Shown one piece after another: positions 2,962 through 50,661 of a stretch of 64,000 nt of DNA; within the stretch, counting starts at the first letter, position 1; each line of letters begins with the position of its first letter. Made by a program: the position numbers and the translations under genes. Origin of the DNA: Clostridia bacterium (GTDB taxonomy: Bacteria; Bacillota; Clostridia; Christensenellales; Aristaeellaceae); NCBI GenBank assembly GCA_017552535.1, contig JAFZPV010000059.1:4629-68628 (forward strand), given 5' to 3'. Below the pieces are notes generated by a model. It worked only from the letters and a program-made list of their open reading frames with translations, did no database searches and was not told the DNA's origin.

Positions 2962-2990
2962 TTGAATCCGGAGGCGCGATGCTATATACT
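2962..2990 (+). promoter_or_regulatory. candidate sigma-A promoter of purC
   Basis: TTGAAT (2962-2967), a 17-nt spacer, then TATACT (2985-2990). Confidence 0.4.
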
Positions 2991-2999
2991 GCATACAGT

Positions 3000-3048
3000 G
3001 AGACAAAGGTGTCTCAGACGGTGCTCCGCACCCTCTGAGGCGCCTTTT
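3000..3048 (+). promoter_or_regulatory. purC leader with two overlapping hairpins; the second is terminator-like
   Basis: Hairpin 1 is GAGACA-aagg-TGTCTC (3000-3015). Hairpin 2 is CTCAGAcGGTGC-tcc-GCACCcTCTGAG (3013-3039), followed by gcgccTTTT. The two share CTC. Confidence 0.3.
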
Positions 3049-3088
3049 ATCATTCCGGTCGAAAACAAATGGAAAGGAAGCGGTGAAC

Positions 3089-3808
3089 ATGATGAAATCG
3101 GAACAGCTCTATGAAGGCAAGGCCAAAAAGGTATTCGCGACAGATGACCCTGCGCTGCTGATCGTGGACTATAAGGACGACGCCACCGCGTTCAACGGTT
3201 TGAAAAAAGGCACGATCGCCGGCAAAGGAATCATTAACAACCAAATGAGCAACCGCCTGATGCAGCGGCTGGAACGCGCGGGCATCCCGACCCACTTCGT
3301 AGAAGAGCTTTCCGAACGGGAAACGCTGGTAAAGCGGGTGGAGATTATCCCCCTTGAAGTAATTGTGCGCAACATTGCCGCGGGATCCTTTTCCAAACGC
3401 TACGGGGTTCCCGAGGGAAAGGTCTTCTCCGCGCCTACAATAGAGTATTCTTACAAAAACGACGAACTGGCGGATCCCCTGATCAATACCTCGCATATCC
3501 TGGCGCTGCAGCTTGCCCGCGCAGATGAGATGGAAACGATCCGGCGGTACGCGCTCCGGGTCAACGAGGTCCTGAGCGCGTTTTGGGCGGAATGCGGTGT
3601 GACGCTTGTGGACTTCAAGCTGGAATTCGGACGCCTGCCGGACGGTACGATCATCCTGGCTGATGAGATCAGCCCCGACACCTGCCGACTGTGGGACAGC
3701 AAAACGGGCGAAAAGCTGGATAAAGACCGTTTCCGCAGAGATCTGGGAGGCGTAGAGGATGCCTATGCTGAGGTCATGCGCCGGCTGTGCGGGCATGGAG
3801 GCAACTGA
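3089..3808 (+). CDS. purC: phosphoribosylaminoimidazole-succinocarboxamide (SAICAR) synthase
   Basis: [25 protein letters not shown] and LVDFKLEFG give a full-length PurC pattern. The RBS GGAAAGGAAG lies 8 nt upstream. Confidence 0.9.
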
Positions 3809-4464: not shown

Positions 4465-6385
4465 ACAGCGGGCGCTCTACTGCGACCGCAGGATGCCTGA
4501 TCCCCGCATGCCCGGTGTATACGGCCAAGAGGAAATAATAGTTATCCGCAAGATAATTGTACCCGCACGGATTGCCTTCCTTCGTGCGCCAGTCCACGCT
4601 CTGCACATAACCGGGCATAAGTCCGGAGTGCGTGAATTCCGTTTCATAGGTATTCAGTATAGCCTTTAAGATACGGTCCGCTTCCTCGCGCATCCCGACG
4701 CGATACATCGCCGTGAGGAAATGGAAGCCGTTCATGCCGCAAAGTCCGCCGTTTTCATAGCGGCCCCAGTCGCTCATGCAGGACCAGTGGATCGTGTCCG
4801 GATCGGCGACGCTGATCAGGTTTCCGGGGATGCCGTAGCGCAGGTCCCCGTATCCCTCATCCCGCATTTTGGCCAGCAGTATGCTCATCATTTTCCTTCC
4901 CTTGTCCAACGGGATCAGTCCCTCATCGATCCCCATGGAGACGGCAAAGGTGAACATATAATCGTGCATGCGGCCGTCAGCGCTGATCCAGCCCGCCATG
5001 ACGCCTGTTTCGAGGTTATAGAACGTATCATAGAAATGCGCGTCAAACAGGGCGATCTGTGAAGCGTATTTCGCAGCTTCAATCTGCCTGCCCGATTCCG
5101 TGAGGAGATCGCGCAATTCGCGCAGCGCCCTGTGGCACAGGCAGTTGAAGTAGATATCCTTATGGCCGAAGGCGAAGTTATCCCACCAGTTTCTCTGTCT
5201 GACGCCGTATTCTACGGTATCCTCCAGGAAATTGCCGGAGAACGGCACCTCAAAGATACCGTCCCCGTCCCTGTCCAGGGTCAGGATGAAATCCGCCGCC
5301 TTCTGCGCATACGGAAGGAGTTTTTCGGCAAAGCCTCTGTCCCAGTGCGCAATGCCGCAGGCGGCAATGACGCTTCCCGGCGTGGAGTCGATAAAGCCGC
5401 ACATGGGTTCCCTGCCCTTTGGACGGTTGATATAGGAAAAGTTCACTTCGCCGTCTTCAGCCTGCGCGTACAGAAATCCATCCAGGATCTGCTGCTTGAA
5501 CGTATCCCTTACCAGTTTGAAAAGCGGTTCGTCGCCGCCCATGACCTGCAGCATATCGCTCTTCATATGGACTGCCAGATGCCCCCTGCCGTGCAGCATG
5601 ATGTTGTCGCCCATATCGAAGTATTCCCTGTTGAGCGCGAACGCGTTCATCCATTGACGGCGAACGCCGTTCCATGCCGCGTCACATCCCCCGTCAAAGT
5701 CGAGTTTCGGATAGATTTCCTCCATGATCTCAAAGCGTATTCCGGATGCGGATGTGTTTGCGGTTCGGAATGTCAATTCGGAATAACCAAAGTGCAGGGC
5801 ATGCATTTTATTGTGGTAACCGTAATTCTCGGCTCCCAGGTCCAGGCCGTTGTATTCCAGGGATGTGAAAAGCTTTTCTTCACAGGTAACGCCTTCATCT
5901 GCACTGATTCTGACCAGTCCGAAATCCGGGAAGTGGATGATGAGCGGAAGCGAATACCGTGTTCTGAAAAGGCAGTTCTTTCTGTTGCTGTGTTTCTTCG
6001 AGTGCTCTTCCGACCATATCGTGAGCGGAGCGCGCCTGATGGAGAAACATATCTTCATGATGGTATTCGGTACGTTTTCAAACCCGAAGGAAAAGTGCCT
6101 GTCATCTTCCATCGTAAATGTCTGTTTTGCACCGGCGGCGTTTTCAAAAACAAGGGTGTTGTCCAGCCGTACGGTCTTTTCTTTGAGCGGCGGGGCTTTT
6201 TCGAACGTCGGGCATATTGCGCCGTAGGAAGGCATCAGCACGCTGTATGTGCCGTGTCTGTCCCAGTCGCGGCCGCCCGATTCCACGCCGAAAAACAGCA
6301 GCCTGCCCGTCTCCGAGTCAAAGGTCAGGGAAGTATAATCGCTGCTGAACGACGAGTAGACCGGATGCGTGTGTTTTGACTGCAT
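4463..6385 (-). CDS. hypothetical 640-aa cytoplasmic protein, possibly an (alpha/alpha)6-barrel glycosidase-like enzyme
   Basis: CAGGAGG RBS and a long clean ORF. The C-terminal half (GGLCGMNGFHFLTAMYRVGMREEADRIL) resembles six-hairpin glycosidases. No signal peptide is present, and the function is not established. Confidence 0.7.
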   Translation of the reverse strand: MQSKHTHPVYSSFSSDYTSLTFDSETGRLLFFGVESGGRDWDRHGTYSVLMPSYGAICPTFEKAPPLKEKTVRLDNTLVFENAAGAKQTFTMEDDRHFSFGFENVPNTIMKICFSIRRAPLTIWSEEHSKKHSNRKNCLFRTRYSLPLIIHFPDFGLVRISADEGVTCEEKLFTSLEYNGLDLGAENYGYHNKMHALHFGYSELTFRTANTSASGIRFEIMEEIYPKLDFDGGCDAAWNGVRRQWMNAFALNREYFDMGDNIMLHGRGHLAVHMKSDMLQVMGGDEPLFKLVRDTFKQQILDGFLYAQAEDGEVNFSYINRPKGREPMCGFIDSTPGSVIAACGIAHWDRGFAEKLLPYAQKAADFILTLDRDGDGIFEVPFSGNFLEDTVEYGVRQRNWWDNFAFGHKDIYFNCLCHRALRELRDLLTESGRQIEAAKYASQIALFDAHFYDTFYNLETGVMAGWISADGRMHDYMFTFAVSMGIDEGLIPLDKGRKMMSILLAKMRDEGYGDLRYGIPGNLISVADPDTIHWSCMSDWGRYENGGLCGMNGFHFLTAMYRVGMREEADRILKAILNTYETEFTHSGLMPGYVQSVDWRTKEGNPCGYNYLADNYYFLLAVYTGHAGIRHPAVAVERPL

Positions 6386-28544: not shown

Positions 28545-28795
28545 CGGACTCTTATGTGAGCCCCGGCTTTGCGGCTGTCCTTCTCCCCTGCCCAAGAAAT
28601 CAATGCCTCAGACAGTTCCGGCAGGTCTCCTGGCTTATGGCTCAGCTTTACCCGCAACCCGCGCGCCTTCTCAAGCATGGCTTAATGGCATCTGCGCAGG
28701 TCTTTCGCCAAATACAGTAATGGCTGTTGCGCCGGATTCTCACCGGCTTCCCTTTTCACCCGGGCGGAAACATCCCCCGGACACCTGAACTGCGT
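28545..28795 (-). promoter_or_regulatory. cobalamin (AdoCbl) riboswitch aptamer
   Basis: The minus strand contains AAAAGGGAAGCCGGTGAGAATCCGGCGCAACAGCC (28729-28752 region). It also contains the B12 box AGCCAGGAGACCTGCC (revcomp of 28620-28635). The outer boundaries are approximate. Confidence 0.85.
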
Positions 28796-28812
28796 ATTCA
28801 GTTATCGCTTTA

Positions 28813-39029: not shown

Positions 39030-40466
39030 TCACATCTCACTGTACCCCATCAGATATTCGTCGACGCTCTTGGCGGCGGCAAGGCCTTCGCTGATTGCCC
39101 AGACCACGAGGGACTGTCCGCGCCTTGCGTCGCCCGCGGCAAAGAGTTTTGGGATGTTTGTCCCATAGCGTACTGTTTTGATGTTTCCGCGTTCGTCGGT
39201 TTCAATGCCGAAGGCTTTGGGGATATAGCTCTGACAGCCTGTAAAGCCGGCTGCGATCAAAAGCAGCTGGCACGGGATCAGCTGTTCGGAACCGGATACT
39301 TTATCCCTGCCTTTCAGCTTTACGGTTTCGACAGCGCTTACGCGTCCGTGACTGTCAGGGACAACCCTGTTCACTGTCGTTTCGAACAGCCTCGGGTCGT
39401 GCCCGAACACGGCGATGGCTTCCTGCTGGCCGTAATCGGTTTTGAGCGTTCTGGGCCAGTCCGGCCACGGGTTGTCCGGCGTGCGCTGAACGGGCGGGGA
39501 GGGCATCATCTCAAGCTGAGTTACAGATCGGGCCCCCAGACGGATCGATGTGCCCACACAGTCGTTGCCGGTGTCGCCTCCGCCCACGATCACCACGTCG
39601 AGGTCTTTGGCGCTGATTGCTCCATTTCCGTCCAGAACCTGCTTTGTCGCCGCAGTCAGGAAATCTACGGCGAAATACACGCCTTCGGAATCGATACCCG
39701 GGGCATTCAAAGCTCTTGGCTGCTTCGCGCCGCAGCACAAAAGCACCGCGTCGTATTCGCCGAGCAGCTTTTCAGCAGGTACGTCTTTGCCGACATCAGC
39801 GTTCAGCTCAAAGCCTACGCCGGCTTGACGCATGAGCGAGATTCGCCTTTCGACGATGCGCTTGTCCAGCTTCATGTTCGGAATGCCATACATCAATAAC
39901 CCGCCCGCACGGTCGCTCTTTTCATATACGGTCACATTGTGTCCGCGCCGGTTGAGCGCCTGAGCGGCGGCAAGCCCCGCGGGGCCGCTGCCGATGACGG
40001 CGATCTTCTTATCTGTCCTGTTGGCCGGCGGATCTGCCTCTATCCAGCCGTTTCCGAACGCCTGCTCGATGATGTATTTCTCGTTGTCGCGAACGGTCAC
40101 GCTGTCGCCGTTCATGCCGCAGGTACAGGCGGCTTCGCACAGCGCAGGGCAAACGCGCCCCGTGAATTCCGGAAACGGATTGGTCTTGAGCAGCCGGCTG
40201 AGCGCGTGCCGGTCGTTGCCAAGGTACAGCATATCGTTCCATTCGGGGACCAGATTGTGCAGCGGACAGCCCGTGAACATGCCGTCCAGTTTCATGCCGC
40301 TCTGGCAGAACGGTACGCCGCAGTTCATGCAGCGGGCGGCCTGTTGCCTGCGCGTTGCGGGATCCGATGACACATGGAATTCGTCAAAACTCTTTATCCT
40401 ATCAAGCGGATCGATATCTGCTGTGTCTATACGGTCGTAAAGCAAGAATCCGTCTTTCTTACCCAT
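39030..40466 (-). CDS. gltD: glutamate synthase small subunit (NADPH)
   Basis: The Fe-S cysteines CMNCGVPFC and [10 protein letters not shown] and the FAD/NAD folds [11 protein letters not shown] and [12 protein letters not shown]. Confidence 0.9.
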
Positions 40467-40470
40467 ACTT

Positions 40471-43400
40471 CTACCTGCCTTCCGCGAACGCTCTGAATGC
40501 CGCGAGCTCAGCTTCCTCCCGGCTCATATTCTGAGCTTCGAACGATGCGATCAGATCGATCATATCCCTGAAATCGCGCGGTATGATTTTCTTGAACAGG
40601 GGAATGTATCTGTCAAAACCGTCCAGGATCTCCTTTGCCTTTGCCGATCCGGTTTCGGCGCAGTGCTTTTGCAGCATCGTCTTCAGCGTTTCTGTATCAT
40701 GCTCAGAGCTGAGGGGTTCAATGTCCACCAGCTGCTTGTTTACCCTGAGGTACAGATCGTGCTTTTCGTCCAGCACATAGGCGACGCCGCCGCTCATGCC
40801 CGCGGCGAAGTTCCGGCCTGTGCGGCCTATGATCGCCACACAGCCGCCCGTCATGTATTCGCAGCCGTGGTCTCCTACGCCTTCCACAACCGCCACAGCT
40901 CCGGAGTTTCTCACCGCAAAACGCTCGCCTGCCACGCCGCGCACGTACGCCTCGCCGCTCGTCGCGCCGTAAAGAGCCACGTTGCCTGCGATGACGTTTT
41001 CGTCGTCCCTGAATGCAGATCCCTTTGGCGGGAAAAGCGTTAGCTTACCGCCGCTCAGTCCTTTGCCGAAATAATCGTTGCAGTCGCCTTCGAGCCGGAT
41101 GGTCACGCCCTTCGGAAGAAAGGCACCAAAGCTCTGGCCCCCGCCGCCCGAAGCGTTTATAATGAAACTGTCTTCATCCAGGGAATTGCCCCTGACGCGC
41201 GTGATCTCGCTGCCGAAGATCGTGCCGAACGTACGGTCTGTACTGGAAACCTGAACGCTGGTCTGCTGTGGTTTGGACGCCCGGATATTCAGCTTTTTGA
41301 GCAGAATGGTCTCATCCTTCGTGTGCTCGGTGCCGAAGTTAAAAGCGTTCTCGGGTACAAAGCTTTCGTTTATGCAGTGGCCGACTATACGGGACATGTC
41401 GATCGTGGAGGCGCGGGGTGCGCTCTGATCCTGCCGGACCCTGAGCAGATCGCCCCTGCCGACCATTTCTTTTACGCTCCTGAAACCAAGGCGCGCCATG
41501 ATCTCGCGCAGTTCCGTGGCGATATATACCATAAAGTTGATTACGTGCTCCGGCTGCCCTTTAAAGCGTTTTCTCAGCTCCGGATTCTGCGTGGCGATGC
41601 CCACGGGGCAGGTGTCGAGATTGCACACGCGCATCATCACGCAGCCCATGCACACCAGCGGCGCCGTCGCGAAGCCGAATTCCTCCGCGCCGAGCAGGCA
41701 GGCGATGGCCACATCCCTGCCGCTCATCAGTTTTCCGTCGGCTTCAAGCGCTACTCGGCTGCGCAGGCCGTTTATGTTCAGGGTCTGATGCGCTTCGGCA
41801 AGCCCCAGCTCCCAGGGCAGGCCCGCGTTGTGTACGGAAGTCCTCGGCGCCGCGCCGGTACCGCCGTCCGCGCCGGAGATCAGGATCACCTGGGCGCCCG
41901 CTTTGGCCACGCCTGCGGCGACCGTGCCTACACCGGCCTCGCTGACAAGCTTTACGGCGATTCTGGCCTTGCGGTTCGCGCATTTAAGGTCGTAGATTAG
42001 CTGGGCAAGATCCTCGATCGAATAGATATCGTGGTGCGGGGGCGGGGAGATCAGGCTCACGCCGGGCGTGGACAGGCGCGCGTGCGCGATCCACGGATAC
42101 ACTTTCTGCCCTGGCAGATGTCCGCCCTCGCCGGGTTTCGCGCCCTGCGCCATCTTGATCTGTATCTCCTCGGCGCTCATCAGGTATTCGCTCGTCACGC
42201 CGAAACGTCCGGAAGCGACCTGTTTGATCTTGGAGCCCTTTATCGTGCCCAGCCGGTCTTTTTCCTCTCCGCCTTCGCCCGTATTGCTCCTGCCGCCCAG
42301 GCGGTTCATGGCTTCGGCAAGACATTCGTGTGCCTCGCGGGAAATGGAACCGTAGGACATCGCACCGGTCTTGAAGCGCCTGACGATTTCTTCGACGCTC
42401 TCCACTTCCTCAAGCGGCACCGGTTCGCACTTGTCGAACGCGAATTCGAGCGTGCCCCTGAGCGTGTGCGGGCGCGTTTCATCGTCCACGCGCTGGGTGT
42501 ATTCCCGGAACAAATCCATGCTGCCCTGCCGCACCGCGCGCTGCAGGGTCACGATCGTCTGGGGGTCGTACAGATGATCTTCCTTGTCGGTGCCGCTCCT
42601 CAAGCGGTGGCAGCCCGTGGAGTCGAGGGTGGTATCGGTAGTGAGGCCCAGCGGGTCGAACGCCTTGTCATGGCGGAAGATCACATCATCGTTGATCTCG
42701 TCAAGCCCTATGCCGCCCACGCGCGAAACGGTATTGGTAAAGTATTCGTCGATCACGTCCTGCCGGATGCCGACCGCTTCGAAGATCTGCGCGCTCTGGT
42801 ACGACTGCAGCACGCTGATGCCCATCTTGGACGCCACGTGGCTTATTCCGTCCACAGCCGCGTCGATATACGCCTGCTTTGCCGCCTCGGGGTCCCTGTC
42901 CAGCATGCCTTTTTCGATGAGTTCGTCCACGCATTCCAGCGCCAGGTACGGGTTGATCGCCCGCGCGCCGTAGCCGAGCAGCAGGGAAAAATGGTGCACG
43001 TCGCGGGGATCGCCGCTTTCGAGTATGACGCTCACGGCGGTGCGCCTGCGCGTGCGCACGAGGTGCTGTTCCAGCGCGGACACGGCCAGCAGGGACGGTA
43101 TCGCCATATGATTTTCGTCCACGCCTCTGTCGGACAGGATGATTACGTTGCAGCCGTTTTTATAGGCGCGGTCGCACTTGATGAACAGATCGTCGAGCGC
43201 GCGCTTTAATGTCTCGCTTCTGTAATACAAAAGCGAGATCGTCTTTACCCTCAGGCTCGGCTGTTTGGCGTCGCGTATCCTCTTCAGCTCGCTGTTTGAA
43301 ATGATCGGCTTTTCAAGCCGCAGCACTGCGCAGTTTTCGGGCTTGTCTTCAAGTATGTTGCCGTCGCTGCCTACATATACGGCGGTATCGGTGACGATCT

Positions 43401-44982
43401 TTTCCCTCAGCGCGTCGATCGGCGGGTTTGTGACCTGGGCGAACAACTGCCGGAAATACGAAAACAGCACCTGATGCTTGTCGCTGAGCACCGCCAGCGG
43501 CTCGTCCGCGCCCATCGACACGATCGGCTCAGAGGCGTTTTTTGCCATGGGGAGGATGACGTCCTTTACATCCTCATAGGTATACCCGAATGCCTTGTAC
43601 AGCCTGTCGCGTTCCTGCTGCGGCATGGGCTTGATCAGGTGATCCTTCAGCGGCAGGTCTTTAAGCTCCAGGAGATGGCTGTCCAGCCATTCTCCGTAGG
43701 GCTTGCGCGAGGCATAACTCTCTTTTATCTCTTCATCGCTGATGATGCGCTTTTGCAGCGTGTCCACCAGCAGCATGTGCCCCGCGCGCACGCGGGATTT
43801 CAGTACGATTTTTTCAGGTTCGATATCGGCAGCCCCGACTTCGCTTGCCAGGATCAGCAGATTGTCGCTGGTCACATAGTACCTCGCCGGACGCAGCCCG
43901 TTCCGGTCCAGCACCGCGCCCACGACGTCGCCGTCCGAAAACAGGATCGCGGCCGGGCCGTCCCAGGGCTCCATCATCGTGGCGTAATAGCGGTACAGAT
44001 CGCGGCGAGTGCGCGAAATGTCGCGCTCGTTCTGCCATGGTTCGGGGATGGTCATCATGACCGCAAGCGGCAGCGGGATGCCGTTCATCATCAGAAATTC
44101 CAAGGTATTGTCGAGCATGGCCGAATCGCTGCCTTCCACAGAAATCACAGGCAGCACCTTGTCCATGTTCTCGCCGAGCACTTGGGAATACAGCGTCTCT
44201 TCTCTGGCCATCATACGGTCGATGTTGCCGCGGATCGTGTTGATCTCGCCGTTGTGCAGGATCAGGCGGTTCGGGTGCGCTCTTTCCCAGCTGGGAAATG
44301 TATTGGTCGAAAAGCGCGAATGCACCATCGCGATGGCTGACGTGAAGTTTGGCTCGGAAAGGTCGGGATAAAAGGCCCGGAGCTGTTTGACCAGAAACAT
44401 GCCCTTGTACACGACGGTGCGGCTCGACATTGAGCATACGTACACGTCTGAGGAGCTTAATTCGAATTGACGCCTTGCGATATAGAGTTTTCTGTCGAAA
44501 TCCAGCCCGCGTTCCGCATCGGACGGCCGCGCGATGAACGCCTGCTCTATGACCGGCATGCAGCTCAGTGCGCGTTCGCCCAGCGTTTCCTGCCTGACGG
44601 GTACGCTTCGCCAACCCAGAAAGCGCATGCCGTCCTTTTCGGTTATGACCTCCAAAAGTTTATGGGCCTGGGCACGCTTGAGCCTGTCGCGGGGCATGAA
44701 TACCATCGCCACGCCGTAATCTCGTTCACCGGGCAGGCTGAAGCCCAGATCGAGCCCCGCGAAAAACGCGTGCGGGATCTGCACCATGATGCCCACGCCG
44801 TCGCCCGTGCTGCCGGTGGCGTCCCTGCCCGCGCGGTGCTCGAGCTTTTCTACGATCCCCAAAGCCATGTCCACGTTGCGCCTGGCTTTCAGGCCGTCAA
44901 TAGAGACCACGGCGCCTATGCCGCAGGCGTCGTGTTCAAATCCGGGTTCGTAGAGCAAATTCCGATAAGGGTTCTTATCCAT
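40471..44982 (-). CDS. gltB: glutamate synthase large subunit
   Basis: The start was moved to MDKNPYRN. The Ntn cysteine is in FEHDACGIGAVV. FMN and Fe-S regions and the C-terminal GXGDHGCEYMTGG repeat domain are present. About 1503 aa. Confidence 0.9.
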   Translation of the reverse strand: MDKNPYRNLLYEPGFEHDACGIGAVVSIDGLKARRNVDMALGIVEKLEHRAGRDATGSTGDGVGIMVQIPHAFFAGLDLGFSLPGERDYGVAMVFMPRDRLKRAQAHKLLEVITEKDGMRFLGWRSVPVRQETLGERALSCMPVIEQAFIARPSDAERGLDFDRKLYIARRQFELSSSDVYVCSMSSRTVVYKGMFLVKQLRAFYPDLSEPNFTSAIAMVHSRFSTNTFPSWERAHPNRLILHNGEINTIRGNIDRMMAREETLYSQVLGENMDKVLPVISVEGSDSAMLDNTLEFLMMNGIPLPLAVMMTIPEPWQNERDISRTRRDLYRYYATMMEPWDGPAAILFSDGDVVGAVLDRNGLRPARYYVTSDNLLILASEVGAADIEPEKIVLKSRVRAGHMLLVDTLQKRIISDEEIKESYASRKPYGEWLDSHLLELKDLPLKDHLIKPMPQQERDRLYKAFGYTYEDVKDVILPMAKNASEPIVSMGADEPLAVLSDKHQVLFSYFRQLFAQVTNPPIDALREKIVTDTAVYVGSDGNILEDKPENCAVLRLEKPIISNSELKRIRDAKQPSLRVKTISLLYYRSETLKRALDDLFIKCDRAYKNGCNVIILSDRGVDENHMAIPSLLAVSALEQHLVRTRRRTAVSVILESGDPRDVHHFSLLLGYGARAINPYLALECVDELIEKGMLDRDPEAAKQAYIDAAVDGISHVASKMGISVLQSYQSAQIFEAVGIRQDVIDEYFTNTVSRVGGIGLDEINDDVIFRHDKAFDPLGLTTDTTLDSTGCHRLRSGTDKEDHLYDPQTIVTLQRAVRQGSMDLFREYTQRVDDETRPHTLRGTLEFAFDKCEPVPLEEVESVEEIVRRFKTGAMSYGSISREAHECLAEAMNRLGGRSNTGEGGEEKDRLGTIKGSKIKQVASGRFGVTSEYLMSAEEIQIKMAQGAKPGEGGHLPGQKVYPWIAHARLSTPGVSLISPPPHHDIYSIEDLAQLIYDLKCANRKARIAVKLVSEAGVGTVAAGVAKAGAQVILISGADGGTGAAPRTSVHNAGLPWELGLAEAHQTLNINGLRSRVALEADGKLMSGRDVAIACLLGAEEFGFATAPLVCMGCVMMRVCNLDTCPVGIATQNPELRKRFKGQPEHVINFMVYIATELREIMARLGFRSVKEMVGRGDLLRVRQDQSAPRASTIDMSRIVGHCINESFVPENAFNFGTEHTKDETILLKKLNIRASKPQQTSVQVSSTDRTFGTIFGSEITRVRGNSLDEDSFIINASGGGGQSFGAFLPKGVTIRLEGDCNDYFGKGLSGGKLTLFPPKGSAFRDDENVIAGNVALYGATSGEAYVRGVAGERFAVRNSGAVAVVEGVGDHGCEYMTGGCVAIIGRTGRNFAAGMSGGVAYVLDEKHDLYLRVNKQLVDIEPLSSEHDTETLKTMLQKHCAETGSAKAKEILDGFDRYIPLFKKIIPRDFRDMIDLIASFEAQNMSREEAELAAFRAFAEGR

Positions 44983-44987
44983 AAGGG

Positions 44988-45524
44988 TCAATCCTTCTGC
45001 AATTCGTTTATGATCTGCCTTGCGATGCCGGCAAGCGGCTGTCCGCTGGCCATGCTGAGTTTTTGCAGATACCGGTGCGCTTCGCTTTCGCTCATGGAGC
45101 GCTTGTCCATGAGCATACCCTTGGCATAGGAGATCAGCTCTGCGTCCGCGCTCCCGCGGTCCGGCCTGGGACGGTTCATTTCTTCCAGCTGGGAAAGCAT
45201 TCGCGCGGATGCACAAAGGTCATAGCGGTTGATGGGCAGCGGCAGGTGGAAAACACGGTTGTTTTCGCATATTTCCAGTTCCTGCGGCTTGGCGATGACG
45301 AGCAGGTACGCCTTGCCTTCCAGATCTTCATACAACGCGTCTGCCGTCATGTCGGAGAACTTTACCCCGCACAGCACCACGCCGCTGCCCATGTACCTCA
45401 CCTGGCGTATGACCTCGGCACCCGTGCGGCACACCGCGCGGACGTTCAGCGCGCCGCCGAGCAGCAGCTCGGTCACGCGTTTGGACACCGCGTCCGATTC
45501 AAATGCCACAATCAGTCGACTCAT
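44988..45524 (-). CDS. ANTAR-domain RNA-binding regulator with an N-terminal pseudo-receiver
   Basis: The C-terminus LISYAKGMLMDKRSMSESEAHRYLQKLSMASGQPLAGIARQII matches the ANTAR pattern. The N-terminus has a REC-like fold, but the usual phospho-Asp position reads VVLCGVKF. Confidence 0.8.
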   Translation of the reverse strand: MSRLIVAFESDAVSKRVTELLLGGALNVRAVCRTGAEVIRQVRYMGSGVVLCGVKFSDMTADALYEDLEGKAYLLVIAKPQELEICENNRVFHLPLPINRYDLCASARMLSQLEEMNRPRPDRGSADAELISYAKGMLMDKRSMSESEAHRYLQKLSMASGQPLAGIARQIINELQKD

Positions 45525-45561
45525 ACGCTGCTCCTGTCACACGTGAATTACCGGGCCGCGA

Positions 45562-46893
45562 TCAATACAGTATCATGTAGCGGGAGATCTCCCAATCGCT
45601 TACATAGGTGCGGTAGGAATCCCACTCCTTGAGCTTGCCCGTGATATACTGGCCGGTGATATGCTCGCCCAGCGTGTCCATGACCAGCCTGTCTTGCTGC
45701 ATCGCCGTGATCGCGCTGTGGAGCGAAGACGGCAGCGAGCGGATCCCTTTGGCTTCTCTTTCATCCGCTGTCATGGCAAAGATGTTGCCGGTGATCTCTG
45801 CGGGCGGGGTCATGCCTTTCTCGATGCCGTCCAGGCCTGCCGCAAGGCATACCGCCAGCTCGAGGTAGGGGTTGCAGCTGGGGTCGGGGCAGCGCAGTTC
45901 GACGCGTGTAGACTGTCCGCGGGCGGCCGGTATCCTGATCAGCGCGCTGCGGTTGGAGGCGCTCCAGGCGGTATAGCAGGGCGCTTCGTAACCGGGCACG
46001 AGGCGCTTATACGAGTTTACGAGCGGGTTGGTGATCGCCGCCATGCCCTGGATGTGGGTGAGCAGTCCGGCGATAAAGCTGTACGCGGTCTTCGAGAGCT
46101 TTCTGCTGTCCGCGGGATCGTAAAACGCGTTTTTCCCGTCCTTGAACAGGGACATGTTGGTATGCATGCCGCTGCCGTTGATGCCGAAGATCGGCTTGGG
46201 CATGAACGTCGCGTGCAGGCCGTTTTTCTGCGCCAGCGTCTTGACCGCGAGTTTGAAGGTCATGATGTTGTCCGCTGCCGTCAGCGCGTCGGCGTATTTG
46301 AAGTCGATCTCGTGCTGGCCGGCGGCGACTTCGTGGTGGGACGCTTCGATCTCAAAGCCCATCTTCTCCAGCGCCATGCAGATCTCACGGCGCGTGCTCT
46401 CGCCGTGATCGAGCGGCCCAAGGTCAAAGTAGCCGGCTTCGTCGTTCGTGGCGGGAATGGGCTTTCCCTTGTCATCCGTCTGGAACAGGAAGAATTCGCA
46501 CTCCGGGCCTACATTAAAGGTATAGCCCAGGTCTGCCGCCTTTTTCAGCACGCGCTTGAGCGTGCCGCGCGGGTCTCCCACAAAGGGCGTGCCGTCCGGG
46601 TTGTAAACGTCGCAGATTAGCCTGGCTACTTTGCCGTGCTGCGGTCTCCAGGGCAGCACGGTGAACGAATCGAGGTCGGGATACAGATACTGGTCGCTCT
46701 CCTGTATGCGCACAAAACCCTCTATTGAACTGCCGTCGATCATGATCTCGTTGTTCACGGCCTTTTCGATCTGGCTGGCGGTGATGGCCACGTTCTTAAG
46801 CTGACCGAAAATGTCGGTGAACTGCATGCGGATAAACTCGACGTCGTCCTCACGCACCATGCGGATGATATCTTCCTTTGTGTACTTGCTCAT
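45562..46893 (-). CDS. glnA: glutamine synthetase, type I
   Basis: The start was moved to [10 protein letters not shown] (GGAGGT RBS). Motifs [29 protein letters not shown] and NRSALIRIP are present. Confidence 0.9.
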
Positions 46894-46920
46894 CGTGCTT
46901 ACCTCCGAAATCCGATTCAA

Positions 46921-46964
46921 AATAAAAGGGCAAGGGGATTCCTCACAGAAGCACCCTTGCCTTG
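46921..46964 (-). terminator. intrinsic terminator inside the glnA 5' leader
   Basis: The minus strand reads CAAGGCAAGGGTGC...; the stem is GGCAAGGG-17 nt-CCCTTGCC followed by CTTTTATTTTG. It lies between the promoter and the RBS. Confidence 0.55.
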
Positions 46965-46974
46965 CAATGATGGA

Positions 46975-47003
46975 ATGATACCACACGCGGCATCGCGTGT
47001 CAA
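46975..47003 (-). promoter_or_regulatory. candidate glnA promoter
   Basis: On the minus strand: TTGACA (47003-46998), a 17-nt spacer, then TATCAT (46980-46975). Confidence 0.5.
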
Positions 47004-47009
47004 TTCGTT

Positions 47010-47020
47010 TTTGCAGGATT
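47010..47020 (-). promoter_or_regulatory. upstream box AATCCTGCAAA, glnA-proximal copy
   Basis: The 11-mer reads toward the glnA promoter and ends 6 nt before its -35 element. Confidence 0.35.
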
Positions 47021-47100
47021 TGTCTGTAAAGTTTTCGTTTTGCAGCCATAATAAATGAAAACCGCTGTATTTGGCACGCAAAGTGGTTTATTGAATTTTG

Positions 47101-47111
47101 AATCCTGCAAA
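47101..47111 (+). promoter_or_regulatory. upstream box AATCCTGCAAA, asnB-proximal copy
   Basis: An identical 11-mer reads toward the asnB promoter and ends 19 nt before its -35 element. It is the inverted partner of 47010-47020. Confidence 0.35.
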
Positions 47112-47130
47112 TTAAGTATTCATTAAGTGC

Positions 47131-47159
47131 TTGACAGGCCCTAAGGCCGGGTGTATACT
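47131..47159 (+). promoter_or_regulatory. candidate asnB promoter
   Basis: TTGACA (47131-47136), a 17-nt spacer, then TATACT (47154-47159). Confidence 0.5.
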
Positions 47160-47166
47160 TCCGCAC

Positions 47167-47220
47167 AAGGCAAGGGTGCCGGATACGTTTTGAGGCGTAT
47201 CGGCGCCCTTGCCTTTTTAT
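47167..47220 (+). terminator. intrinsic terminator inside the asnB 5' leader
   Basis: AAGGCAAGGGTGCCGGATACG-8 nt-CGTATCGGCGCCCTTGCCTT followed by TTTTAT. It starts at about the predicted transcription start site, 55 nt before the asnB ATG. Confidence 0.6.
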
Positions 47221-47274
47221 CTGGGAAGAGGCCAAAACGGAAGCGTTTGGTTCCCGGGCAGGAGGGGAAAGCAG

Positions 47275-48855
47275 ATGTGTTCGATCATGGGCGTCGAAAG
47301 CAAGAAGATCACGCGGGAAGAGTTCGCTTCTCTTCTGAGCCGCACCGCTTCCCGCGGGCCGGACATGACAAAAGTGGTATTTACGCCCAGCGGCCCGCTG
47401 GGCTTTGAACGGCTGAGCATCATGGGCCTGACCGACAGCGGCATGCAGCCGTTTGAGCTGAACGGCTCTTACGTCATCTGCAACGGCGAACTCTACGGCT
47501 TCCGCCCCATCAAGCGGCGCCTGGAGCAGCGCTATACGTTCAAAAGCGGCTCGGACTGCGAGATCCTTTTGCCTCTGTATGAGGAATACGGTCTTGAGAT
47601 ATTCAAAACACTGGACGCGGAATTTGCTCTCATTATCTATGACGCTAAGCGAAACAGTTTTGTCGCGGCTCGTGATCCCATCGGCATCAGACCTTTGTAT
47701 TACGGATTTACCGGGGACAAAAGCATCGCCTTTGCCAGCGAGCCAAAGAACCTTATGGGCTTATGCGAGACGATCCTGCCTTTCCCGCCGGGGCATTACT
47801 GGGCGGACGGCAAATTCACCCAGTATGCCGATCCGGCACTGATCGGCCAGTTCACGATGAGCGAGGAAGCCCACGTGTGCGAAAAGCTCAGGCGCCTGCT
47901 GGTCGACGGCGTGGAGAAGCGTCTGGACGCCGACGCGCCGATCGGTTTTCTGCTCTCGGGCGGGCTGGATTCCTCTCTGGTATGCGCGATCGCGCAGGGC
48001 ATCCTGAAAAAGCCCATCCGCACCTTCGCCATCGGCATGGACATCGACGCGATAGACCTGAAATACGCCCGCATGGTGGCGGATTATATCGGCTCGGAGC
48101 ACACGGAGGTCATCATCTCCGAAAAAGACGTGCTGGACGCCCTGCCCACCGTGGTGGAACTGCTCGCCACCTGGGACATCACCACGATACGCGCCAGCAT
48201 CGGCATGTATCTCGTGTGCAAATACATACATGAGAACACGGACGTGCGCGTGCTCCTGACCGGCGAGATCTCGGACGAGCTGTTCGGCTACAAATACACG
48301 GACTTCGCGCCGAACGCCGCCGCGTTCCAGGAGGAAGCTGAAAAGCGCATACGGGAACTGCACATGTACGACGTGCTGCGCGCGGACCGCTGCATATCGG
48401 TGAACAGTCTGGAGGCCCGCGTGCCTTTCGGCGACCTGAAGTTCGTACGCTACGCAATGAGCATCGATCCCGAACTCAAAATGAACACCCACAACATGGG
48501 CAAATACCTGCTGCGCAAAGCTTTCGCGGACGAGCACATCCTGCCGGACGAGATCCTCTGGCGGCAGAAGGCGGCGTTTTCTGACGCAGTGGGGCATTCG
48601 ATGGTGAGCGACTTGAAGGCCTTGGCGGAGCGCAGCTACACGGATGAGGAATTCAAGGAGAAAGCGGCCAAGTACGATTACCGGCCGCCCTTCACGAAGG
48701 AAAGCCTTATGTACCGCGAGCTGTTCGAGCGCTTTTATCCCGGCCAGGCGCGCATGATCGCAGACTACTGGATGCCCAACAAAACCTGGCCGGGCTGCAA
48801 CGTGGACGACCCCTCCGCGCGCGTACTTTCAAACTACGGAGCCAGCGGGGTTTAA
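47275..48855 (+). CDS. asnB: asparagine synthase (glutamine-hydrolysing)
   Basis: The start was moved to MCSIMGV (Ntn Cys2) with a CAGGAGGGG RBS. The PP-loop LLSGGLDSS is present. Confidence 0.9.
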
Positions 48856-48957
48856 ATACTGTCGGATAAGGTATCGTATTGTACGGTGCGAAGGTGGACC
48901 GAACGAAGTATCCTTTCGACGACATCTCATCACGGAGAGAACAAAGGAGGTTTGGTT

Positions 48958-50661
48958 ATGGCATTTTCGGCTGTCAACACGATCTGGGTGCTTTTGGGTG
49001 CGGCGCTGGTTTTCTTCATGCAGGCAGGCTTCGCCATGTGCGAGGCTGGCTTTACCCGTGCCAAGAACACAGGCAACATCCTGATGAAAAACCTGATGGA
49101 TTTCTGCATCGGCACACCCCTGTACTGGCTGTTCGGCTTTGGAATCATGTTCGGGACCGGCACAGCGGTTTTCGGCTGGATCGACCCGTTCATCATGAGG
49201 GAATATGGCAGCATACTGCCCCAGGGCGTACCGCTGTGGGCCTACGCGATCTTCCAGACGGTTTTCTGCGCCACGTCCGCGACCATCGTGTCCGGCGCGA
49301 TGGCGGAGCGCACGAAGTTTTCAGCATACTGTCTGTATTCGGCAGCGATATCGCTTTTCATTTATCCCGTATCGGGTCATTGGATATGGGGCGGCGGCTG
49401 GCTGTCCGAACTCGGATTTCATGATTTCGCCGGCTCCACCGCAGTGCACATGGTGGGCGGTGTGTGCGCCCTGATCGGCGCGAAGATGCTGGGCCCGCGC
49501 ATCGGCAAGTACGGCAAGGACGGCAAGCCCAAAGCGATCCTCGGCCACAATCTGTCCATCGCGGCGCTCGGCGTGTTCATCCTGTGGTTCTGCTGGTTCG
49601 GCTTCAACGGCGCTTCCACCGTGGGCATGGACAGCGACGAGCTGATCGTGAGCGCGGGACTGGTCTTCTTCAACACGAACCTTGCGGCTGCCGTGGCAAC
49701 GCTCGCCACGATGCTATTCACCTGGCTCAGATACGGCAAACCCGACGTGTCCATGACGTTCAACGCGGCCCTGGCAGGCCTTGTCGGCATCACCGCGGGC
49801 TGTGACGCGGTCAACCCGTTCGGCGCGGCAGTCATCGGACTGTGCTGCGGCCTGACCGTGGTGCTGAGCGTAGGCTTTTTTGACAGGATCGTTAAAATCG
49901 ACGACCCGGTGGGCGCGATCTCGGTGCACGGCGTCTGCGGCGCTTTGGGTACGGTCCTGACCGGTTTCTTCGCCACCGGGGTCTCCACCATGAAGGGCGT
50001 GTTCTACGGCGGCGGCTTCAGATTCCTTGGCGTACAGTTTCTGGGCGTGGCCGCGACGATCGGCTGGACCGCGGTCGTGATCACCATCGTGTTCACTCTG
50101 ATCAAAAAGACGATAGGCCTGCGCGCGGACGCAGCGGACGAGACCATGGGCCTCGACCGCTCCGAACACGGCCTGCACACCGCCTATGCCGGCTTCAGCA
50201 TCATGCAGGACAGTGTATATGAAGATGCCGGGACCGCAGCCGCACCCGTCGTGACTTACGAAACCGAAACGCAGCCGCGCCGGGAGAATGCCAGACCCGC
50301 CGGCACGCCCGTTTACACCCGCGTGCAGATCATCTGCCGCCCGGCAAGCCTTGAAAACCTGAAGACGGCCATGAACCGCATCGGCATCACCGGAATGACG
50401 GTGACCAATGTCATGGGTTACGGCGCGCAGAAAGGCAAACCCGAGTATTACCGCGGCACGCCCGTGGAGGTCACGCTGCTGCCCAAAGTGCAGGTGGATA
50501 TCGTCGTGAGCAAGGTGCCCGTACGCCAGGTGATCGAGACCGCGAAGCAGGTGCTGCACACGGGGCACATCGGCGACGGCAAGATCTTTGTTACCGACGT
50601 CGAGAACGTCGTGCGCGTGCGCACCGGAGAAGAAGGCTACGATGCGCTGCAATCCGATTGA
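48958..50661 (+). CDS. amt: ammonium transporter fused to a C-terminal P-II (GlnK/GlnB) domain
   Basis: The Amt core includes FFMQAGFAMCEAG and FAGSTAVHMVGG. After a linker of about 50 aa comes a P-II domain (ITGMTVTNVMGYGAQKGKPEYYRG...DGKIFVTDVENVVRVRTGE). AAAGGAGG RBS. Confidence 0.85.
   Translation: MAFSAVNTIWVLLGAALVFFMQAGFAMCEAGFTRAKNTGNILMKNLMDFCIGTPLYWLFGFGIMFGTGTAVFGWIDPFIMREYGSILPQGVPLWAYAIFQTVFCATSATIVSGAMAERTKFSAYCLYSAAISLFIYPVSGHWIWGGGWLSELGFHDFAGSTAVHMVGGVCALIGAKMLGPRIGKYGKDGKPKAILGHNLSIAALGVFILWFCWFGFNGASTVGMDSDELIVSAGLVFFNTNLAAAVATLATMLFTWLRYGKPDVSMTFNAALAGLVGITAGCDAVNPFGAAVIGLCCGLTVVLSVGFFDRIVKIDDPVGAISVHGVCGALGTVLTGFFATGVSTMKGVFYGGGFRFLGVQFLGVAATIGWTAVVITIVFTLIKKTIGLRADAADETMGLDRSEHGLHTAYAGFSIMQDSVYEDAGTAAAPVVTYETETQPRRENARPAGTPVYTRVQIICRPASLENLKTAMNRIGITGMTVTNVMGYGAQKGKPEYYRGTPVEVTLLPKVQVDIVVSKVPVRQVIETAKQVLHTGHIGDGKIFVTDVENVVRVRTGEEGYDALQSD

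Follow-up and report, generated by a model that had tools for sequence, protein, structure and literature searches.

Single hexaloop hairpins in the glnA and asnB leaders of a Clostridia bacterium as putative ANTAR-dependent transcription attenuators

Here we consider the leaders of the divergent genes glnA and asnB, and of a third gene, purC, in a stretch of 64,000 nucleotides (nt) from a Clostridia bacterium of the Aristaeellaceae (assembly GCA_017552535.1, contig JAFZPV010000059.1, positions 4,629 to 68,628; "the window" in what follows, numbered from its first letter), which quite probably act as transcription attenuators that depend on a protein, in the manner of NitR and GnfR. The promoters of nifH, nifEN, glnK-amtB and further genes of Geobacter sulfurreducens are closely followed by premature terminators, which CAGGCAANGGCGCC precedes and overlaps (Ueki & Lovley 2010, PMC2995071). 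The phosphorylated form of GnfR, a receiver-ANTAR protein, binds RNA carrying CAGGCAAGGGCGCC and not mutated RNA, and deletion of either gnfR or gnfK gives rise to prematurely terminated nifH transcripts (PMC2995071). In Clostridium saccharobutylicum (Stutz et al. 2007, as summarised in PMC6316151 and PMC4676874), NitR, which is encoded after glnA, is described as an ANTAR antiterminator that induces the glutamine synthetase (GS) and glutamate synthase (GOGAT) genes under nitrogen limitation, in a system that in strain NCP262 also involves antisense RNA.

The canonical ANTAR target is composed of two hexaloop hairpins, both of which are needed, and a longer linker between them abolishes the action of EutV (Ramesh 2012, PMC3369931; Walshe 2022, PMC8934654); according to a 2025 review, all characterised ANTAR targets are dual hairpins. 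The covariance searches of Ramesh et al. (2012) placed ANTAR targets before glnA followed by an ANTAR gene in Alkaliphilus, before asnB in Clostridium sp. and Mahella, and before amtB in C. thermocellum (PMC3369931). Given the precedents of GnfR, NitR and these searches, both the mechanism and its nitrogen theme are already known, and the leaders described here would represent a minimal, single-hairpin form of it that falls with GnfR and NitR and outside the formal dual-hairpin family.

Hexaloop hairpins inside promoter-proximal terminators

The initial annotation of this DNA had drawn attention to a 14-mer, CAAGGCAAGGGTGC, shared by the two divergent leaders, and the sequence indeed has exactly two copies in the 64 kb, at 46964-46951 on the minus strand ahead of glnA and at 47166-47179 on the plus strand ahead of asnB; only 0.79 matches with up to two mismatches are expected in the window. 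Each copy provides a hairpin of three base pairs closing a hexaloop whose first and fourth bases are A and G, in keeping with the loop rule published for ANTAR targets. In the glnA leader it reads GGC[AAGGGU]GCU (46950-46961, minus strand), with a covariance model score of 20.1 bits, and in the asnB leader GGC[AAGGGU]GCC (47169-47180, plus strand), with 18.1 bits. We regard these hairpins as the candidate ANTAR sites and antiterminators.

A consensus scan located near-consensus sigma-70 promoters in front of both hairpins, at the places predicted for them, each with 11 of 12 matches: TTGACA-17-TATCAT with a TG before the -10 box for glnA (47003-46975, minus strand), and TTGACA-17-TATACT for asnB (47131-47159, plus strand), the hairpin of the latter beginning some 3-4 nt past the inferred transcription start. 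The promoter type and its distance to the hairpin recur in about 70 related glnA leaders, where the -10 box ends only 8-20 nt before the hairpin (mode 11-13), and this bears out the expectation that there is no space for an upstream antiterminator.

Folding likewise confirmed the 5'-proximal GC-rich hairpins and U-runs proposed for the two leaders. The glnA terminator (46919-46961, minus strand) consists of a stem at 46961-46929 and a U-run to 46919 (-18.4 kcal/mol, z = -2.2), with a 5' arm that is the 5' stem and loop of the hexaloop hairpin; the asnB terminator (47167-47221, plus strand) has a stem at 47167-47215, followed by a U-run (-38.2 kcal/mol, z = -5.9). Hairpin and overlapping terminator are mutually exclusive folds. 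The hairpin alone amounts to -1.8 kcal/mol in the glnA leader, -4.2 kcal/mol in the asnB leader and -6.7 kcal/mol in the purC leader, the terminators being valued at -18.4, -37.7 and -34.0 kcal/mol in this comparison, and enforcing it costs 10.5, 20.7 and 17.9 kcal/mol, respectively. With hairpins of -1.8 to -6.7 kcal/mol set against terminators of -18 to -38 kcal/mol, termination is the default state, and given that the terminator is far the stabler, read-through would need a protein that captures the hairpin during transcription, as had been argued from the expectation that something must hold the 14-mer.

The opposite strand of the asnB terminator 3' arm (47195-47220, minus strand) also matches the hairpin model, as GGC[AAGGGC]GCC with 18.7 bits, because this terminator is a near-perfect palindrome; the match is probably a by-product, and an antisense transcript would also carry the site. 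Rfam, which has no ANTAR family, returned only meaningless microRNA-like matches on the terminators when the whole window was searched at gathering scores and this region at E up to 10.

For comparison, a GlnA protein scan with one genome per species yielded 80 loci, all from uncultured Clostridia, with GlnA identities of 74-86%, and a further 80 metagenome loci were gathered via the ANTAR protein discussed below; from both sets, 88 distinct 26-nt segments of glnA and asnB leaders of uncultured Clostridia were aligned. Nearly all of the related glnA leaders have the same anatomy, in which a sigma-70-type promoter is followed by the hexaloop hairpin and by a terminator that holds this hairpin in its 5' arm, and in 60 of 77 leaders folding pairs the hairpin nucleotides with a 3' arm that is followed by a U-run. 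When the alignment was anchored on the 5' stem and loop only, the 3' stem paired in 221 of 231 cells, as against 68-103 of 231 (29-45%) for a shifted partner. The three inner stem pairs are formed in 88, 87 and 82 of the 88 distinct leaders, and two of them each show 27 double changes between G-C and A-U; none of 500 shuffles reached the observed covariation, and all slid controls were lower. At two stem positions G-U pairs occur (26/88 and 14/88), which are sensible only for RNA of that strand. The loop follows A-A-N-G-G/A-N, G4 being invariant and A1 present in about 90% of the leaders. The covariance analysis, a check that the initial annotation had called for, thus found a covarying stem, and the ANTAR-type hairpin that had been drawn within the 14-mer is upheld by this stem, by the retention of A1 and G4, and by a core that is the GnfR site.

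Two close relatives allow a finer comparison. L081 belongs to the same species (99% identity) and has three changes in or beside the asnB and glnA leaders, among them an A to U at base 3 of the 14-mer, which the hairpin does not include, and one base in the glnA promoter spacer. L161, a congener, has the same gene order as the window and an ANTAR protein that is 86% identical. The asnB promoter is kept in both. In the 3' arm of the asnB terminator the changes found in L161 and L081 are C to U, which gives a G-U wobble, and G to A, which turns U-G into U-A, so that pairing is kept; the C-to-U change of L081 produces a G-U pair, and the changes of L161 are wobble-neutral or give better pairing. 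A reading of the tandem CAAGG-CAAGG as a TRAP- or PyrR-like repeat site was rejected, since relatives carry AGAGCAAGGG or GAACAAAGGC and the repeat is therefore not conserved.

On the mechanism that we propose, transcription would start from the strong sigma-70 promoter 2-7 nt upstream of the hairpin motif, and by default the nascent RNA would fold into the long GC-rich hairpin with its U-run and stop after about 45-55 nt. Alternatively, the first 12 nt of the terminator 5' arm could fold as the weak 3-bp stem with the hexaloop AAGGGU. The ANTAR protein encoded just past glnA, when active, presumably under nitrogen limitation, would capture this hairpin as the RNA emerges, and the capture would sequester the terminator 5' arm and permit read-through into glnA-nitR-gltBD, asnB-amtB/P-II and purC.

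The likeness to GnfR extends to the site itself. The core GGCAAGGGYGCC of the GnfR site is identical to the window hairpin, and AAGGCAAGGGUGCC of the window has the entire core; by direct comparison with CAGGCAANGGCGCC, 12 of the 14 positions agree in the asnB leader (AAGGCAAGGGTGCC) and 11 in the glnA leader, and both sites overlap a promoter-proximal terminator on its 5' side, as GnfR-type sites do. Genes of the amtB/glnK type are in the GnfR regulon too. On the other hand, GnfR is phosphorylatable and has a cognate kinase, GnfK, whereas the receiver encoded in the window lacks a phospho-acceptor; GnfR acts on nif genes behind sigma-54-dependent promoters, whereas here the promoters are of the sigma-70 type and the targets would be glnA-gltBD, asnB-amtB and purC; and no hexaloop hairpin figured in the description of the Geobacter element, which was given as a sequence. 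With the canonical targets of EutV, NasR, AmiR and NasT the leaders share an A1/G4 hexaloop in the terminator 5' arm, an ANTAR gene nearby and a nitrogen theme. Those targets, however, have an upstream hairpin outside the terminator, whereas here only the terminator-embedded one is found and the transcript would start 2-13 nt before it.

Several points weigh against this interpretation. The case for this organism is computational throughout, and the transcription starts are taken from promoter consensus only. The glnA terminator is modest by its z value. Characterised ANTAR proteins need two hexaloops where only one is conserved here. Lastly, the tally of motif against ANTAR gene has few negative loci (three with neither, three with the motif only), and for this reason the co-occurrence of the two is weak as a statistical test.

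The ANTAR regulator and the operons

The initial annotation had placed an ANTAR gene 1.4 kb from the leaders. It is indeed nearby, and is more exactly the second gene of the glnA operon: a 178-residue, NitR-like protein is encoded at 44988-45524 on the minus strand (Pfam PF03861, E = 7.5e-15), between glnA (45562-46893) and the glutamate synthase genes gltB (from the ATG at 44981) and gltD (39030-40466), all of them assigned by Pfam. The gaps of 37 nt (glnA to the ANTAR gene), 6 nt (ANTAR gene to gltB) and 4 nt (gltB to gltD) point to a single glnA-nitR-gltBD operon (39030-46893, minus strand), which we propose to be regulated by the glnA leader. A scan found no terminator-like site in the three short gaps, and the single minus-strand site that it listed in the operon span, at 44926-44907, lies within the gltB coding sequence. 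With the regulator inside the operon, the proposed circuit would be positively autoregulated. The order of glnA and an ANTAR gene beside glutamate synthase genes is that of glnA-nitR-gltAB in C. saccharobutylicum, and the same order is found in L161; the likening to NitR is one of gene order and described role. The window differs from NitR as described in that asnB, amtB/P-II and purC carry the same leader.

Downstream of the other leader lies asnB (47275-48855, plus strand, by Pfam, with the ATG at 47275 and not 47276), which is followed after a gap of 30 nt by an amtB/P-II fusion gene (48886-50661) whose product of 591 residues joins an ammonium transporter and a P-II (GlnK-like) domain in one protein; such a fusion is also present in the relatives L004 and L042. 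The two genes look like a second operon (47275-50661), which would be regulated by the asnB leader, and the next promoter-like site, at 50658, is ahead of purA. Elsewhere in the window, a cobalamin riboswitch (RF00174, 104 bits) at 28603-28803 on the minus strand is the sole Rfam family to reach its gathering score.

Across the 80 loci of the GlnA scan, a profile built from the ANTAR homologues found the ANTAR gene directly 3' of glnA in 74, and 68 loci have the hairpin motif and the ANTAR gene together.

The AlphaFold model of the regulator (mean predicted local distance difference test, pLDDT, 89.7) consists of a five-stranded CheY-like domain, a long helix (residues 100-116) and three C-terminal helices, which is the receiver-ANTAR fold with its three-helix ANTAR bundle. 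The best fold matches by Foldseek are EutV (4.6e-11), which is matched in its free and its RNA-bound form, Rv1626 (4.6e-10) and AmiR (8.7e-6), and AmiR is also the closest sequence match among solved structures. The Pfam receiver domain is absent in all homologues. At the position of the phospho-acceptor Asp, residues 52-53 are Cys-Gly in about 80% of 113 glnA-linked homologues, an alignment made by eye and not by superposition, and by the same kind of positional mapping strand 1 is not followed by the acidic pair; given a receiver-like fold that lacks the phospho-acceptor, the regulator is a pseudo-receiver ANTAR protein. Asp58, close to the Cys-Gly, is almost invariant among the glnA-linked ANTAR proteins, and the conserved Cys-Gly and Asp58 may hint at the way in which the pseudo-receiver would switch. 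In the ANTAR domain, the invariant residues His150 and Met158 correspond in the sequence alignment to the Tyr and Met of EutV that contact RNA by stacking on G4 and plugging the loop, and the regulator would in principle be competent for RNA binding.

In these features it resembles AmiR of Pseudomonas aeruginosa, likewise a small protein, in which a receiver-like N-terminal domain without the residues for phosphorylation is joined with a coiled-coil helix and an ANTAR domain. AmiR, however, is held by sequestration by AmiC, which is encoded adjacent to it, whereas no AmiC- or NasS-like partner gene was found in the glnA operon.

Alternative readings of the leaders

The two leaders are also preceded by an exact copy each of AATCCTGCAAA, at 47020-47010 on the minus strand, 6 nt from the glnA -35 box, and at 47101-47111 on the plus strand, 19 nt from the asnB -35 box. 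It is possible, on balance somewhat doubtful, that these boxes are transcription-factor sites that form a second layer of control, acting on initiation and independent of the RNA switch. The copies form an inverted pair at a distance of 80 nt, and each stands ahead of a -35 box. In L161 both boxes are fully kept, as are the two promoters, the two hairpins and all of the stretch between the asnB box and its -35, while the middle of the intergenic region, over about 55 nt, is down to roughly 65% identity; TGCA-containing A/T-rich elements also lie upstream of many related glnA promoters. The different spacings, however, place the boxes out of register with each other (6 and 19 nt, with 5 nt in L161), L161 has lost the third, partial copy at 47038-47044, and the purC promoter has no box. 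As an 11-mer with at most one mismatch, AATCCTGCAAA was found twice in the window against 1.1 expected, and is not rarer than chance. In relatives beyond the genus the 11-mer was not found, and a k-mer search of 77 promoters for a common upstream element gave only A-rich and TGCA-containing words, none of them as specific as the box. Nor was a known regulator motif recognised, as a comparison by eye with catabolite-responsive element (CRE), CodY and TnrA/GlnR-like sites gave no convincing match. Of the claim that the boxes are mirrored control elements, then, the two positions stand, and the shared function is unproven, given the one congener, the differing spacing and the distant relatives that lack the box; the boxes may be factor sites, and with a single informative species the evidence is thin.

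Some further features of this region deserve mention. A second, upstream glnA promoter at 47077-47048 (9/12), which would lengthen the leader, was rejected as it is not kept in L161. The spacer of the glnA promoter (46983-47000) is filled by a 6-bp palindrome, CACGCG-ATGC-CGCGTG, which has one substitution in L081 and is intact in L161. Upstream of the glnA -35 box (47006-47050, minus strand) there is a direct repeat of CTGCAAAACGAA and CTGCAAAAACGAA, 29 nt apart, of which L161 has lost the distal TGC while keeping the AAAACGAAAACTTTACAG block between the copies.

A second alternative, which we consider improbable, is that the leaders are canonical dual targets after all, with the apical loop of the terminator as the second hexaloop and a dimer holding both hairpins, the two being nested in the terminator. 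Within the genus the apical loops can be drawn as G4 hexaloops (UUUGAG for asnB, UGUGAG for glnA, and AUUGAG, with both A1 and G4, for asnB of L161), a group of rumen relatives shares an apical loop GUUGA, and L031 has an apical hexaloop ACAGAA. Over the 77 leaders, however, the apical loops share no sequence and vary in size between 3 and 12 nt, and a second A1/G4 hexaloop occurs downstream in only 7, against 3.0 expected by shuffling, and is not conserved. In many leaders, moreover, the first hairpin uses for its 3' stem the very nucleotides that make up the 5' strand of the upper terminator stem, which makes the two hairpins incompatible, and in the window glnA leader the stems would overlap by one nucleotide and have 2-3 bp each. 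Upstream, a second A1/G4 hexaloop was seen in 11 of 94 leaders, against 8.9 expected, and in every case overlaps the promoter. The leaders thus lack the pair of hairpins joined by a linker of about 2-25 nt by which the family is defined (Ramesh 2012; Mehta 2021), and the earlier count of one convincing hairpin per leader holds, a second being enriched neither downstream nor upstream.

By far the least probable alternative is that the hairpins are not regulated terminators, and serve instead as constitutive mRNA-stabilising stem-loops or as DNA operators at +1 for a nitrogen repressor: 5'-proximal stem-loops can stabilise Firmicutes mRNAs, and the terminator DNA is a near-perfect inverted repeat whose opposite strand at asnB scores 18.7 bits, but neither role needs the part that is conserved, namely a short, internal hairpin in which the loop G is invariant and the G-U pairs are strand-specific, while the stems end in U-runs, the upper stems are free in sequence and length, and the element is tightly linked to an ANTAR gene and identical to a demonstrated RNA-binding site.

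A wider regulon and its implications

Protein-dependent attenuation of this type would not be confined to the divergent pair. A third such leader stands ahead of purC (2962-3056, plus strand; covariance model 16.7 bits for the site at 2995-3020), with a promoter found by the scan, TTGAAT-17-TATACT (2962-2990), the hairpin GAGAC[AAAGGU]GUCUC (3000-3015), a terminator with a U-rich tail (3005-3047, -34.3 kcal/mol, z = -7.6) and the purC ATG at 3089. This leader suggests that purine synthesis genes belong to the same regulon. Two other matches of the covariance model, at 6142-6167 and 2707-2733, lie inside coding sequence, have neither promoter nor terminator, and were set aside as chance.

Among the relatives, the same leader is found upstream of amtB/P-II (L004, L005, L010, L012, L027 and L042), of purF (L042 and L061), of an aminotransferase gene (L015 and L072) and of purA-purC-purF (L168). 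Since purC in the relatives is mostly internal to purA/purF operons, L168 alone is informative on its upstream region; the motif was not found in the upstream region of L166 or L169.

The control of asnB varies between lineages. In most relatives (the L002-L071 set) asnB has a T-box leader, with GGTGGCACCACGG upstream, whereas L006, L007, L017 and L026 have an ANTAR-type arrangement like that of the window, and L061 (3572-3913) combines both types of leader in tandem ahead of asnB. For the window asnB no T-box match was found by Rfam in 46850-47320 even at E up to 10. The distribution of the two leader types looks like regulatory replacement or stacking between lineages.

In a set of human-gut metagenome loci with glnA and the ANTAR gene (L088-L110, L121, L122 and L138), the 5' hairpin motif is missing. 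At a distance of about 100 nt ahead of glnA, these loci have a long hairpin, ATGTACTCATG...CATGAGTACAT, with the complement of the motif, ACCCTTGC, enclosed in it. This hairpin might represent an antisense form of the leader or some other rearrangement of it.

ANTAR regulation is currently pictured as the work of a dimer that needs two hexaloops at fixed spacing, and the leaders collected here, more than 80 of them distinct, keep one, at the 5' end. More tentatively than the attenuator assignment itself, and at a little short of an even chance, we suggest that a single hexaloop of 12-16 nt at the 5' end may suffice for ANTAR antitermination without a recruitment hairpin or a second site of binding; that it would be read by a NitR-like Cys-Gly subfamily that senses nitrogen by a route other than phosphorylation; that glutamine, glutamate, asparagine, ammonium-uptake and purine genes would be so controlled in many uncultured gut and rumen Clostridia; and that the asnB T-box would have been replaced or stacked in some of the lineages. 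A protein-controlled terminator of this kind, at about 50 nt, would also be a compact part of potential use.

If one hairpin suffices, the criteria by which ANTAR targets are searched for would change, as covariance models of the dual hairpin are expected to miss this class. To our knowledge, no regulator has been studied in these uncultured Clostridia, and in this large group of rumen and gut organisms the proposed control would cover the core genes of ammonium assimilation (GS, GOGAT, asparagine synthetase and AmtB/P-II) and, as it seems, some purine genes.

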